From Octopus vulgaris (Eukaryota), in assembly GCA_951406725.2 (NCBI GenBank), contig OX597817.1, forward strand, positions 9,734,001 through 9,798,000: a stretch of 64,000 nt of DNA, in the 5' to 3' direction. The notes beneath the pieces are model-generated. The model was not told the DNA's origin and made no database searches. It saw nothing but the letters and a program-made list of their open reading frames with translations. Each line of letters starts with the position of its first letter. Position 1 is the first letter of the stretch. The translations under genes and the position numbers were made by a program. Positions 1,972-61,809 of the stretch are shown here, one piece after another.

Positions 1972-2011
1972 AAGAAATTACCGGTTTCGCGTGTAGCTTT
2001 TCAAATTTCTT
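1972..2011 (-). ncRNA. Minimal type-I hammerhead ribozyme motif, U3-A8 core variant, in a Penelope-like repeat
   Basis: Minus strand parses as aagaaat-TTGAAAA-gc(tacac)gc-GAA-A(ccgg)T-a-atttctt: 7-bp stem I, 2-bp stem II, and a 1-bp stem III with palindromic CCGG loop. Confidence 0.6.
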
Positions 2012-2169
2012 GTGACGTTATGTTTATATTGCATGGAGTTATCGTTGTATTTATTTTCAGGAGATTTCTAAATAAGGGGAGGTAGTGAGTGATTTCTTCC
2101 GGTGTAAGGGAGATAATCGCTTAAAATTTTTTTTCCTTTTCCCTTGTTCATTTCTCTGTGTCAGTATGT

Positions 2170-2756
2170 TCGGATGGTTTTTCCCTTTCTTGTGAAAATT
2201 TGGATTCTTCATGACGGAAGTGCACCCTGTCACCAAGCACACCTCACTTGTGAGTCTCTCGCCAAAAGCTACATGGTATCGCTTCCGCACCCGCCCTATC
2301 TGCCAGATTTAACATCTGGAAACTTCCATCTCGTCCTCAGGATGAAAATGCAGCTCAAATGATGCCGTTTTATCAAACATACCTAGTTCAGTAACTTGTT
2401 GATACTTATTTATTTATTTATGCGCCCTTTTCAAGCCTGGCCAGATTCATGGGCCCGGTTTCCCGGTTTCTGTGGTGTATGTGTTCCCCCCCCCCCAGCT
2501 GGACGGGACACCAGTCCATCGCAGCGTTACCCAAGGAACAGGAAGTGAGAGTGAGAGAAATTTGTGGCGAAAGAGTACAATAGGGGTCGCCACCACCCCC
2601 TGTCGGAGCCTTGTGGATCTTATAGGTGTTTTCGCTCAATAAACACACACAACACCCGGTCTTGGAATCGAAACCGCGATCCTCCGACCGCGAGTCCGCT
2701 GCCCTAACTACTGAGCCATTGCGCCTCCGCAAACTTGTTGATACTGCCTCGTATAA
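2170..2756 (+). mobile_element. Mariner transposon relic (catalytic fragment plus TIR), interrupted by a SINE
   Basis: Translation WILHDGSAPCH...LPHPPYLPDLTSGNFHL resembles the mariner HDNARPH and YSPDLAPSD motifs. A TIR-like end (gatactgcctcgta) follows the SINE. Confidence 0.8.
2407..2730 (-). mobile_element. tRNA-derived SINE B (head1, tail Y) with 14-bp TSD
   Basis: Head ggaggcgcaatggctcagtagttagggcagcggactcgcgg with A/B-box-like motifs. TSD aacttgttgatact at 2393-2406 and 2732-2745. Confidence 0.9.
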
Positions 2757-2799
2757 ATTAATTTTTCTTTTAATTTTTAAAATTAATTAATTTTTTCTT

Positions 2800-3295
2800 T
2801 TACAAGGTCCTGTAACAGACCACTCCTGGATAGTGACCTGTGGCATCACCCAAATGTGGAGATAAAGAACGAATCATCCGGCTAGCTGCTACAGTATGAC
2901 ACCGAAGCCAGCCTGTTTTAGCCTGTCCTTGCCCGCTGAACAACATTACTGTTGTACAGAAAGAAAAAATACTAGCCAATTGCAAAAGCCAGTCTCATTT
3001 CATGACTTTGCAAGCGGTTCTATGGTAAATGAGTAAGGTAAAAGATCCCCATGCTGGCTCTGACGCCGCCAAGGTAAACTTGATCTACGCTGGTTTGCTC
3101 CCGCTCCGGAAGACAGTGACGAGTAAGACAGAATGCAGAAAAAACAATGAACATTGCCGAATGGAATACTACTTGATAAAACAAGATCTCAAAGACCTGA
3201 GCGTCAGACAGCTCTAATTGCACAGTGGTCAAATACACGCAACATCAACATCAGCGCTATGTGTGAAACACGATGCCTGGATATGGTGACTCTAA
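2800..3295 (+). mobile_element. RTE-clade LINE 5' relic (AP-endonuclease N-terminus)
   Basis: Frameshifted MNIAEWN...LLDKTRSQRPERQTALIAQ...NINISAMCETR matches the RTE pattern WNVRTL..RPERRTAL..IDIAALSETR. Confidence 0.75.
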
Positions 3296-3562
3296 TTTCG
3301 CTATCATCGAAAAAATTCCTCTGTGTAATGCTCGAGTTAGTTGAAGACAAATCTTCTGTCCAGAAACACATGTTATACAATTTATATAACGATCTATTTT
3401 GCACTGTGTTGCGTATTAAAAACGTCTTTAGTATACATACATATCATTATATGTACATTTGCTTTCTCTGTCTTTCTCTCTCTCTCTCTCTCTCTCTCTG
3501 ACACATTCACATATCTATATACATCCCCAAATATGTTTGTATATTATTATTATTATCATTAT

Positions 3563-3948
3563 TGTGTTTTTTCCTTCTTTCTTCAAATTTTCTTCCGTTT
3601 CTCGCCGAGTGTTTTCCATACATCTAGGGCAGAGAAGGGCATTGTATGCATTCCCAGATTACACGCGCAAATTCACAGATAAAATATGTATTTAAAAATT
3701 AATAAATAAATAAATTCATGGATGGATGTTATTTTCACAACGATTGTGCTCTTCTCGGTACATGAGCCGTTCCAGTTAATACGATTTTTTGCACTTCCTG
3801 TAGGGATGGTAAGCCTGGAATCATTTTCAAATAGGTTTCAGTACCTTTTTTTTTCATTCCTAGAGATCCTACAACCACTGGTACTGTAGTCGCCTTGAGT
3901 TGCCACATTTTTTTCAATTTCCATTAGCAGGTCTTTATATTTACTAAT
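3563..3948 (-). mobile_element. R4/Dong-like (RLE) non-LTR retrotransposon 3' end
   Basis: KYKDLLMEIEK / MWQLKATTVPVVVGSLG...VQKIVLTGTAHV. Bounded by (AAT)n at the 3' end and (AAG)n(AAT)n at the 5' end. Confidence 0.8.
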
Positions 3949-4108
3949 CTTCTTCTTCTTCTTCTTCTTCTTCTTCTTCTTCTTCTTCTTCTTCTTCTTC
4001 TTCTTCTTCTTCTTCTTCTTCTTCTTCTTCTTATTATTATTATTATTATTATTATTATTATTATTATTATTATTATTATTGCTACTGTTGTTGTTGTTAT
4101 TGTTATTA
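3948..4108. repeat. Compound (CTT)n(ATT)n microsatellite
   Basis: Read directly from the sequence. Confidence 0.98.
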
Positions 4109-4111
4109 AAC

Positions 4112-59261: not shown

Positions 59262-59465
59262 TTTTTTTTTGCTTGTTTCCATGATTGGACTGTGACCAAG
59301 CTGGATCTAGTTGCAGCATTACTCATCTTTGCCAGCTGAGTGAACCGGAGCAACGAGAATTGAAGTGTTTTCCTCAAGAACACAACACACCGCCCGAACC
59401 AGGAGTCGAAACCACCATCCTACGATCATGCAAAATTCTAACCACTAAGCCATGCACTACCACTT
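59262..59465 (-). mobile_element. SINE with head2/mid2 and a SINE-A-type tail
   Basis: cactcagctggcaaagatgagta followed by ccagcttggtcacagtccaatcatggaaacaag. Confidence 0.7.
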
Positions 59466-59559
59466 AGCTTATTATATTCAAGGAACAAAAATAATTTCTT
59501 GTCACGATATATGTTAATTTCTTTTCCAATTAGAGTAAATGGAAATGGTTATGCCTACA

Positions 59560-60050
59560 CGGAAACCGTAATTTCTTATTTTTCCAAGAACACTCTTTAC
59601 ATGATCGACATGCTGATCACGAGATTCAGTTCTAATTAATATATCATGGAATATATCATGGTACGGAATGCGAATTTACAGTCCGCAAACATCGCATCCA
59701 TAACCTACTGAAAAATTGCAGATGCGACCTTTAGACCAAAAGGTAATCTGTTATATGATATTTATATAGTTCTTTATGCGTATTCATTGTTGGAAATTTC
59801 GAGCATTCCTCGTCTAATTTAATTTGCAGGTACGCATCGGACAGATCCAGTTTCGAAAATATCTTGTCATCGTTTAATTTAGCAACATTATTCCCTGGAG
59901 TAGGTAGCGGATAGAGGCACAATTTTAGAGAGTCATTTAAACCAGTAGAAAAATCGACACACACCCTGATTTTGATATTCTTTTTTTTTAATACACACAG
60001 TTGGTGCTTCCTATTTAGAACAATCCACTTTTTTAGTAATTACTAAATTT
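59560..60050 (-). mobile_element. Gypsy LTR-retrotransposon RT relic
   Basis: IRVCVDFSTGLN...YPLP...FSKLDLSDAYLQI...NTHKELYKY. Confidence 0.85.
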
Positions 60051-60059
60051 TTAATAATT

Positions 60060-60315
60060 ACGGTTTCCCTGTTTCTGTGGCGTATGTGTTCCCCTCAGCT
60101 GGACGGGACGCCAGTCCGTCGCAGAGTTACTCAAGAAGGGAGAGAGTGAGAGAAAGTTATGGCGAAAGAGTACAACAGGGGTCACCACCACCCCTACCGG
60201 AGCCTCATGGAGATTTCAGGTGTTTCCGCTCAATAAACACACACAACGCCCGGTCTGGGAATCGAAACCACGATCCTCCGACCGCGAGTCCGCTGCCCTA
60301 ACCATTGCACCTCCC
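60060..60315 (-). mobile_element. SINE B (head1/mid1, tail Y)
   Basis: Matches 2407-2730. Confidence 0.85.
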
Positions 60316-60432
60316 TATATTATATTATATATTATATTATTTATATGTGTGTCGTTAGCTAAGTGGAAGAGATATCTTCTTCGGGCTATAAACGCCAGTA
60401 ACAGTGTCCCGTATAGCCAGGAAAAAACATGG

Positions 60433-61715
60433 ATTACATGGAAAAGTGCGAGCGAGAGAAATAATATTGTTAGCATTATAAACCTGGAAAATTACAGGAC
60501 AAGTTATTACACTTGGAAAAGTTCAGGACAACTTATTACACCTGGTAAAGTACAGAACAAGAACATATTTACTTAAAATATTGCATCTAAGGATAAAATT
60601 CGAATATTAAAAATTATTTGATTTTAATTTACAAAGTAACATTATAATCAAAAAAGATACCATCATTTTCTTAAAATATTGACACACTAGAATACTTTAA
60701 AAATGTACCAATATAGGTAAAGTTGTATGCAAAGTAGAATAGCATATATGTTGGGAAAATTCATTATTTAAAAAGTAGGCATTGGGTAACAACTAAAAAT
60801 GTGAGAACTTAGGCAATAACTCAAGCAAATTTTACTGAGAATTTGTTGTTATAGGTAGGTTTTCCTCTAGTATCAGGTCATCCCATAACTTCTGTCCGAT
60901 TTTACCTTTTTTTAAATTGAATGAAATTTAATAGTATTTTAGAATGTCTAATGGAATTAAAAATTATTTTTATACATTTGTGTATATTTAAACTAATTAA
61001 ATATTATTTTACAGAATAATAGAAAATAAAATTTCTTTGATTAAAACCGTTTCTAACATGGAAGTATCCAAAGAGCATTTGAGACTCATAATGCTTTATG
61101 AGTATAAAAAAGGAAACTCTGCAGCCGAAGCGACTCGAAACATACACTCAGTTTATGGGAAAGAATGCTTGACTGAAAGAACTTGCAGAAGATGGCTTGC
61201 AAAAGTCAGAAGTGGAGATTTCAGCCTTGAAGATGAAGATCGAACAGGACGTCCAGTTGAGTTTGATGATAAGCTCCTTGAGGCATTACTTGAAGAAAAT
61301 TCTGCATTATCAGTTGAAGAATTGGTAATAAAGCTTAGTTCAAACCATACAACTGTTCATCGTCATATTCAACAACTTGGAAAGGTTCCTAAATGCATTA
61401 TTCTTAAAGTCCAAAAAGTATTTCAATTGAGTTATTTCTTATTTTTAATAAAAGTAATAAGTAATAACAAATAGCAGTAATAACGTATAATAAAGTTTTT
61501 TGTCTTAATAAAAGCTTAATATTTGCTAAATCTAAATATTTTATTTGAAGTTTTATCCATAGCTGCAATATTTAAGTAAAAATCTTTCTTGTTCTGTACT
61601 TTACCAGGTGTAATAAGTTGTCCTGAACTTTTCCAAGTGTAATAACTTGTCCTGTAATTTTCCAGGTATATAACCTTAAGAATATTATTTCTTTTGCTCA
61701 CATTTTCTATGTAAT
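60433..61715. mobile_element. Element with roughly 190-bp inverted arms, each holding 29-bp direct repeats
   Basis: 60433-60620 is the inverse of about 61530-61715. Unit acacttggaaaagttcaggacaacttatt occurs about three times per arm. Confidence 0.7.
60871..61395 (+). mobile_element. Mariner 5' half: TIR plus open N-terminal HTH region, truncated before WVPHEL
   Basis: MEVSKEHLRLIMLYEYKKGNSAAEATRNIHSVYG...RSGDFSLEDEDRTGRP...QLGKVPK. Confidence 0.9.
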
Positions 61716-61771
61716 ATAAATTATACGTACATAAATTATATGAACAATTCTTATTCCATTCTGGATCATAA

Positions 61772-61809
61772 CTGTCCGATGAACGCGAACGTGAAACTCT
61801 GAGTAGCAG
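61772..61809 (+). ncRNA. Minimal hammerhead motif, U4-to-C variant
   Basis: ctgt-CCGATGA-acg(cgaa)cgt-GAA-A(ctctgag)T-a-gcag, close to a (TA)n tract. Confidence 0.55.

Follow-up and report, generated by a model that had tools for sequence, protein, structure and literature searches.

We analyzed a stretch of 64,000 nucleotides from the genome of Octopus vulgaris (NCBI GenBank assembly GCA_951406725.2, contig OX597817.1, positions 9,734,001 to 9,798,000 of the forward strand; here, the window), in which an initial annotation had noted a panel of hammerhead core variants in repeats. These motifs are very probably minimal type I hammerheads that reside in the pseudo-long terminal repeats (pLTRs) of three coding families of Penelope-like elements (PLEs; here, families A, B, and E) and in a tandem retrozyme of about 360 bp (family C), with family D a likely fourth PLE end; they would process multimeric transcripts as weak self-cleaving RNAs, either dimer-dependent or assisted by protein. 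The established observations behind this reading are the family membership of the motifs, the upstream genes that other copies of A, B, and E carry, the head-to-head pairs of copies, the two alternative 3' ends, the (TA)n flanks of A, B, D, and E, the head-to-tail period of C, and core variants that are family-wide; self-cleavage by the motifs is predicted. The fixed G3-C8 pair in the abundant coding family B, a core predicted to cleave, is possibly unreported.

Hammerhead motifs in the window

A descriptor of the type I hammerhead was applied to both strands (core N-Y-G-A-N-N-A, positions 3 and 8 in a Watson-Crick pair, GAAA, UH, and three stems). Six intact motifs were found, compared with a mean of 0.12 and a maximum of 1 in 60 local dinucleotide shuffles (1-kb blocks), none of which reached 6, and the intact hammerhead cores reported initially were recovered among them. 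Hammerhead motifs are common in this genome, as 20 stretches of 10 kb taken elsewhere (200 kb) contain 5 motifs versus 0.45 expected, and the motif density of the window, whose content is microsatellites and dispersed repeats, is about 3 to 4 times that of this small sample. The motifs and the copies that carry them are as follows.

1731-1799, (TA)n/(TAGA)n tract closing the family A copy
1796..2189, minus strand, 5'-truncated 3' end of family A (last codons of the open reading frame [ORF], pLTR, and tail), 97% to the inverted arm in locus L212
1972..2011, minus strand, hammerhead motif A found by the descriptor, UUGAAAA (U3-A8), 2-bp stem II, stem III ACCGGU, A17
5834..6041, minus strand, family E copy with a pLTR piece from the core (5834-5974, minus strand) and an inverted tail (5977-6041, plus strand) that replaces the 5' strand of stem I
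25479..25823, head-to-head pair of family B with a tailed arm (25479-25688, minus strand) and a tail-less arm (25689-25823, plus strand)
25623..25672, minus strand, hammerhead motif B1, GUGAACA (G3-C8), extra G, 5-bp stem II, stem III AAUAUU, U17
25695..25745, plus strand, hammerhead motif B2, core GUGAACA
30338..30654, minus strand, main part of the family C retrozyme unit of about 360 bp, 73% to the tandem dimer L076, period 360
30561..30607, minus strand, hammerhead motif C with the canonical core CUGAGGA, an extra U, a stem II of 4 bp, and a stem III that departs from the family palindrome by one mismatch
31060..31204, minus strand, preceding part of the family C head-to-tail unit, matching positions 227-371 of the L076 unit
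31665..31872, plus strand, solo tailed copy of family B with a (TA)n tract on either side
31678-31730, plus strand, hammerhead motif B3, GUGAACA, with G3 at 31686 and C8 at 31691
36063..36363, plus strand, family E copy (low-complexity untranslated region and pLTR) with the core at about 36240, where the family has UUGAAGA; G12-A15 are decayed in this copy
36546-36679, second partial family E copy with tail
61731..61847, plus strand, tail-less copy of family D, with (TA)n from 61848 on
61772-61809, plus strand, hammerhead motif D, CCGAUGA (U4C)

The genome (2.8 Gb, 227 contigs) was searched with each of the motifs as query. From at least 1090, 400, 477, 755, 2164, and 2180 candidates per search, 40 were scored and 30 loci were kept, and core states were counted in 30 aligned copies per family, the window copy included. 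Because the top matches lean toward the window's own variant, independent checks are given where they were made.

The motifs are present in the family consensuses. The type I core is canonical in C, compensated in A and B, and U4C in D, and it is only partly conserved in E (U3·G8 wobble). Three stems, an open stem I, and a short palindromic stem III are found in all, with a stem I of only 3 bp in the E consensus. The tiny, near-palindromic stem III described in the initial annotation is confirmed (ACCGGU in A, AAUAUU in B, ACCGUACUGU in the window copy of C, ACCGUACGGU in the C family, and ACUCUGAGU in D), as is the extra base preceding stem II in several motifs, namely B, C, and the E consensus; A and D are without it. 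The core has indeed been diversified, and its variants are family-wide: UUGAAAA (U3-A8) is present in 30 of 30 top copies of A, G3-C8 in 28 of 30 copies of B, C3-G8 in 25 of 30 copies of C, and C4 in 24 of 30 copies of D. A (TA)6 or longer tract lies within 300 nt of seven of the eight motifs, compared with 23% of random positions; the suggested association with (TA)n holds to this extent but not for family C (9 of 30 copies near (TA)n against a background of 36%).

Families with the anatomy of Penelope-like elements

Families A, B, D, and E form inverted, 5'-truncated pairs with a tail on one end. The tail measures about 40 nt in A and about 60 to 70 nt in B, D, and E. Adjacency to (TA)n was found in 14 (B), 17 (D), and 12 (E) of 30 copies, against 15%, and low-complexity sequence extends upstream of the motif for about 0.5 to 1 kb in E and B and for more than 1 kb in D.

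Family A is a young coding PLE, of which the window holds a 5'-truncated stump. Its genome matches are 99 to 100% identical (16 of the 40 scored are 100% identical over 121 nt), and the core UUGAAAA also occurs in three older copies from other loci (79 to 83% identical). The predicted cut lies between positions 1979 and 1978. Two classes of 3' end, separated by about 40 nt, occur in A, and (TA)n follows directly in 27 of 30 copies. An ORF of 715 amino acids (L212:3012-5156) encodes reverse transcriptase (RT; PF00078, E 2.4e-7, with DKG), a CX4CXXC linker, and GIY-YIG endonuclease at the C terminus, in one frame. All four long A loci that were fetched are 5'-truncated head-to-head pairs, none with a 5' pLTR. 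In L211, a frame of 401 amino acids (3671-4873, plus strand) without a Pfam match lies upstream of, and overlaps, the family A RT frame; it could represent either an ORF1 of its own or an N terminus displaced by a frameshift.

The two decayed cores that the initial annotation placed near 5940 and 36236 belong to one family, E, with the consensus core UUGAAGA and a 3-bp stem I. Thus, their U3·G8 pair is inherited and not private decay. In 60 aligned copies, the 3-8 pair is U·G in 42, U-A in 11, and C-G in 4, so that the proposed preservation of the 3-8 pair fails for this family; the change G8A (5 and 7 of 30) does not clearly exceed that of other G columns. A decayed GIY-YIG frame (endonuclease part only) lies upstream of E in five loci (L154, L158, L129, L131, and L144), and the E endonuclease is 46% identical to that of B. 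Hence, to call the host repeats unrelated was too strong.

Family D resembles a PLE in its inverted pairs, its two 3' ends, and its (TA)n flanks, has a 6-bp stem I in its consensus, and is noncoding for more than 1 kb upstream. It is likely a Penelope-like end, the fourth such family. PLE endonuclease sequences found downstream of D in L105 and upstream in L245 (nested) were dismissed as separate insertions.

The initial annotation had proposed that several lineages of PLE-like or retrozyme-like elements coexist, all of them non-autonomous. Coexistence is upheld by five families, three with genes (A, B, and E) and one retrozyme (C). Lack of autonomy holds for C but not for A, B, and E, whose copies in the window are 5'-truncated members of coding families.

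Seven more hammerhead families were seen in flanking DNA (L019/L049/L092; L075/L164/L198/L242; L007; L028/L212; L142; L228; and L049), and they include another motif with U3-A8, two further families with U4C, and one whose stem II is long. Further PLE endonuclease families were seen in L038, L197, L105, L188, L022, and L245. Because the L038 and L197 copies of one family are 97% identical, several PLE lineages were recently active.

Family B, an abundant coding element with a G3-C8 core

The G3-C8 motifs noted at 25.6 and 31.7 kb are both present, but the former site holds two, head to head, in a pair flanked by an 11- to 12-bp duplication (25470-25481 and 25822-25833). In an independent check, among 30 copies chosen solely by the sequence 3' of the cut, 24 have GUGAACA, 3 lack the core, and 3 have a different one. 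No alternative letter reaches 5% at G3 or C8 in four runs with four organism labels (385 to 7185 contigs per run, of uncertain RNA status). The commonest variants in the motif are C>T and G>A at the stem II CpG (window 31697-31699), expected from methylation decay after insertion. Counts of B insertions (three in the 200-kb sample, four across 691 kb of non-B loci) suggest a copy number on the order of 10,000 or more.

A typical copy measures about 210 bp. Locus L235, which was reached from a random-sample stretch, is a head-to-head pair of 5'-truncated B copies with a tail on one arm and without a 5' pLTR. Its longer arm contains an open frame of 487 amino acids (RT end, CX3CXXC, and GIY-YIG), followed by about 1 kb of low-complexity sequence and the GUGAACA motif. 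The RT end and the endonuclease were recognized from motifs; Pfam names neither the B protein nor four of its homologs, and the 22 longer homologs that were found are unnamed. The view of B as a free-standing 210-bp element was dropped once long copies and the coding locus appeared. PLE endonuclease sequences downstream of B in L038 and L197 are separate insertions. In all, 64 tailed and 33 tail-less B arms were counted, overlapping loci not being removed.

In long B copies, a branch-point-like ACTAAC, a run of pyrimidines, and YAG directly precede an ATG, 21 nt upstream of G3. This arrangement was seen in L235 (4880-4910, plus strand), L056, L197, and L221, and short B copies start there and frequently carry an extra G. 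Of the 30 copies chosen by their 3' part, a single one extends beyond this AG. At the position three letters ahead of the ATG, where long copies show C or T, 12 of 43 tabulated arms have G, and in 7 of these 12 it is not the shared inverted junction. The extra G is consistent with a G derived from the cap where transcription starts, or with a first exon that is very short. By eye, no splice donor that would yield G-A-G before the ATG of short copies was found in L235, so both are still candidate readings; Penelope has a promoter and an intron at the corresponding place (PMC2377424).

The 5' ends of B copies do not pile up at the cut site. Only 2 of 30 start there, both at inversion junctions with microhomology. 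As the other 28 retain DNA 5' of the predicted cut, the inserted copies appear to have been made from uncut RNA, as described for Anolis (PMC11167929).

A tandem retrozyme

Family C is, from its sequence, a non-LTR retrozyme with a canonical type I hammerhead, noncoding and of the size known from mussel. In 28 of 30 loci, the sequence 3' of the motif recurs 5' of the motif in the family with a period of 360, and tandem dimers exist in L076 and L077. Head-to-tail pairs numbered 175 in C, compared with 0, 4, 2, and 8 in A, B, D, and E, where they are scattered and without a common period. In the window, another repeat at about 30660-31055 interrupts the C copy. Stems I and II measure 6 and 4 bp in the consensus, where stem III is a perfect palindrome of 10 nt; the GC content of the family is 0.43. 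In one subfamily, stem II has changed from GAGC/GCUC to GACC/GGUC, a compensatory change found mostly together with U4C. No PLE protein match was found in the 30 C loci, nor any DNA similarity between C and the four PLE ends. The copies are about 80% identical to each other, which indicates that the family is old.

Covariation of the 3-8 pair and predicted folds

A search that placed no constraint on positions 3 and 8 found 108 motifs in 12 clusters, compared with 1.2 in shuffles, in 991 kb of loci that overlap and were mostly picked by these families. For the comparison of 12 families, one cluster (a decayed C copy) was dropped and A, which its 2-bp stem II had excluded, was added. The 3-8 pair is C-G in eight families, U-A in two, G-C in one, and U·G in one. 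It is thus Watson-Crick in 11 of 12 (permutation p 0.004, counted by script), and the initial claim that the pair is preserved stands apart from E.

In plain folds, the z-scores against shuffles are -2.6 to -3.3 for B, -2.0 for C (whose minimum-energy fold differs from the hammerhead), and -1.3 and -1.8 for E copies. The expectation that the motifs would fold better than shuffled sequence is borne out by B and weakly by C, whereas A and D do no better than shuffles; folding energy by itself backs only the former two. In a comparison without a control, the double hammerhead is predicted to beat two monomers in all four intact window families, with energies of -14.1 versus +6.2 (A), -25.4 versus -14.0 (B), -23.4 versus -13.6 (C), and -11.9 versus +0.2 kcal/mol (D).

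These data can be accommodated in a model based on nick-and-prime steps described for PLEs (PMC11167929 and PMC8557442). The PLE protein would nick AT-rich DNA, and reverse transcription of uncut RNA would begin at two internal sites 3' of the hammerhead, giving tailed and tail-less ends; early termination would leave short, inverted stumps that bear a hammerhead. Most short B copies end about 20 to 25 nt 5' of the core, at what is likely a transcription start or a splice acceptor. The 3-8 pair would covary (C-G, U-A, and G-C) since the active fold requires it, and two copies would join through their palindromic stem III as a double hammerhead, weak monomers becoming better dimers as proposed previously (PMC4209133). 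Because the head-to-head motifs are on opposite strands, they cannot form a double hammerhead with each other within one transcript.

Alternative explanations

Several observations weigh against the proposed reading. The folds of A (z -0.13) and D (z +2.1) are no better than shuffles, and in the minimum-energy folds of A and B, positions 3 and 17 are paired (U3-A17 and G3·U17), resembling an inhibitory C3-G17 trap described in PMC3884650. No Rfam hammerhead model matched among the best 150 of the 158 window matches, which are solely microsatellite-driven matches to miRNA models, or in short scans of the C and B regions. The 12 families are related, and five are known from one locus each, so that the 3-8 covariation is supportive and not decisive. 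The link between the B motif and its gene is one locus (both arms of L235); 240 to 300 nt of its upstream region are common to two more loci. No RT-endonuclease gene linked to D was found in 30 + 12 + 9 loci and two upstream walks. Moreover, E is widespread despite its U3·G8 pair and 3-bp stem I, and 28 of 30 B copies carry DNA 5' of the predicted cut.

The weak folds of A and D and the lack of Rfam matches would suit chance matches in AT-rich, repeat-rich DNA, but the probability of this is negligible. A chance origin is already refuted by the shuffles (0 of 60 attain the motif count), by the family consensuses, in which the motifs lie 80 to 150 nt from 3' ends, where PLE hammerheads are known, and by the excess of motifs in the 991 kb; the compensatory stem II changes in C argue likewise. 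The uncut origin of the B copies, the spread of E, and the 3-17 pairing predicted for A and B speak for a different view, in which the elements are as described here and the variant cores (G3-C8, U3-A8, U4C, and U3·G8) are near-dead relics or protein-binding or folding signals, fixed by founder effects in a few master copies and amplified because insertion needs no cleavage. Consistent with it, insertion in vitro did not require cleavage, RNA ends at the cut site were not found (PMC11167929), and PLEs without canonical hammerheads proliferate well (PMC8557442). Yet G3-C8 and U3-A8 each require two changes that restore a pair, the remaining core letters and the three stems are intact in the consensuses of A to D, all but one of the 12 families are Watson-Crick at 3-8, and a C3G/G8C double mutant partly rescues cleavage in a PLE hammerhead (PMC11167929). 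We consider this view rather unlikely.

Alternatively, all the hosts might be independent, non-autonomous mini-elements (retrozyme- or SINE-like [short interspersed nuclear element-like]) or, in a weaker form, the 210-bp B unit might propagate itself from an internal promoter and borrow the PLE protein. Family C is such an element, no gene was found for D, B copies hardly ever pass the AG upstream of the motif, and the G before the ATG fits a capped RNA starting there. This is improbable given the coding copies of A, B, and E and the absence of a head-to-tail period in A, B, D, and E. A full-length transcript that is reverse-transcribed from a start within its 5' pLTR would likewise be expected to yield short B copies, as the data in PMC11167929 would imply.

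The PLE and retrozyme reading being preferred, a more specific proposal for B can be made, albeit tentatively and at less than even probability: B may carry a working, naturally selected G3-C8 hammerhead, in PLEs so far only a laboratory rescue mutant, in copies on the order of at least 10,000 and in several related animal species. U17 would avoid a G3-C17 trap, and the copies of about 210 bp would be a fossil record of capped, uncut RNAs starting about 23 nt upstream of the core.

Relation to known elements

The arrangement is mostly known, and almost every aspect of it is covered by PMC4209133 (Cervera and de la Peña, 2014), which described minimal hammerhead ribozymes in the pLTRs of metazoan PLEs; the motif panel is an expected property of animal PLEs. 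Shared with that description are the pLTR location, the prevalence of single motifs from truncated PLEs, opposite-strand pairs 100 to 700 bp apart, an extra base between positions 9 and 10.1, a palindromic helix III, several consensus families per genome, and U3-A8. In its Fig. S3, the UUGAAAAA core (Schistosoma mansoni 4) resembles A (UUGAAAA) and the UUGAAGAA core (Saccoglossus 1) resembles E (UUGAAGA). In contrast, G3 or C4 occurs in none of the 56 representatives in that figure, while here the B consensus is G3-C8 and the D consensus U4C. The descriptor used there could not find G3-C8, because it was built on canonical and U3-A8 cores.

The octopus PLEs also resemble the Neptune/Nematis PLEs (Craig et al., 2021; PMC8557442) in RT, linker, and C-terminal GIY-YIG with CCHH, in inverted 5'-truncated copies with a tail on one end, and in their (TA)n preference. 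The linker there is of the type CX2-5CxxC, compared with CX4CXXC in A and CX3CXXC in B, a likeness in motifs. Tails are 30 to 40 bp there, against about 40 nt in A and about 60 to 70 nt in B, D, and E, and the latter three differ in the long low-complexity regions upstream of the motif. With the Anolis Poseidon PAc (Frangieh et al., 2024; PMC11167929), they share tails that can be explained by two internal RT start sites, a hammerhead near the pLTR-ORF junction, and a probably uncut RNA template. G3-C8 in PAc is the engineered C3G/G8C rescue mutant, whereas in B it is the natural state of the whole family.

Family C resembles the animal non-LTR retrozymes (PMC7229834; see also Li, Clavereau, and Pollet, 2026, 10.64898/2026.07.22.740005) in its noncoding head-to-tail unit of about 360 bp with 43% GC, its canonical type I core, and its monomers and dimers; mussel units measure 350 to 390 bp (Cervera and de la Peña, 2020; PMC7229834). 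It differs in its age (about 80% identity between copies) and in one subfamily with U4C.

Among natural core variants (Perreault et al., 2011; PMC3088659), U3-A8 covariation, U4C in a viroid, and a 2-bp stem II have counterparts here; the text of that paper, its Figure 5 aside, names no natural G3-C8. In the literature searched, whose coverage is incomplete so that a prior report is possible, natural G3-C8 in a PLE was not found, only engineered G3-C8 (PMC3884650, where the data are not shown, and PMC11167929). The words hammerhead, retrozyme, and ribozyme do not occur in the main text of an octopus repeat-annotation paper (PMC13282606).

Other features of the window

A repeat search of the window was dominated by microsatellites. 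Frameshifted endonuclease and RT frames in the ORF list mark fragments of a long interspersed nuclear element at 18526-21088 (minus strand), and further RT-end fragments lie at 26570-26878 and 34082-35195. Dispersed SINE-like repeats occur in tandem at 28305-29050 and 39316-39867 (377-bp and 184-bp periods, respectively). The N terminus of a transposase, which we take to be mariner-like, is encoded at 61001-61474 (plus strand), between repeats at 60482-60561 and 61588-61674; these are 29-bp tandem arrays that look like mutually inverted copies.

Implications

Much of what the window contains is ordinary: PLE stumps in (TA)n, a U3-A8 core, and a retrozyme of molluscan size. Searches based on CUGANGA miss families such as B, and Rfam missed the three motif regions that were scanned closely. 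Why PLEs keep hammerheads is an open question (PMC8557442 and PMC11167929). The pair swaps that occur naturally among the families argue for continued selection of the active fold, while uncut RNA is the source of the inserted copies. A natural G3-C8 sequence and its coding parent are available from family B for a direct test. If the proposal for family B is true, this family would show a core kept by selection, with cutting and insertion using different RNAs or taking place at different steps.

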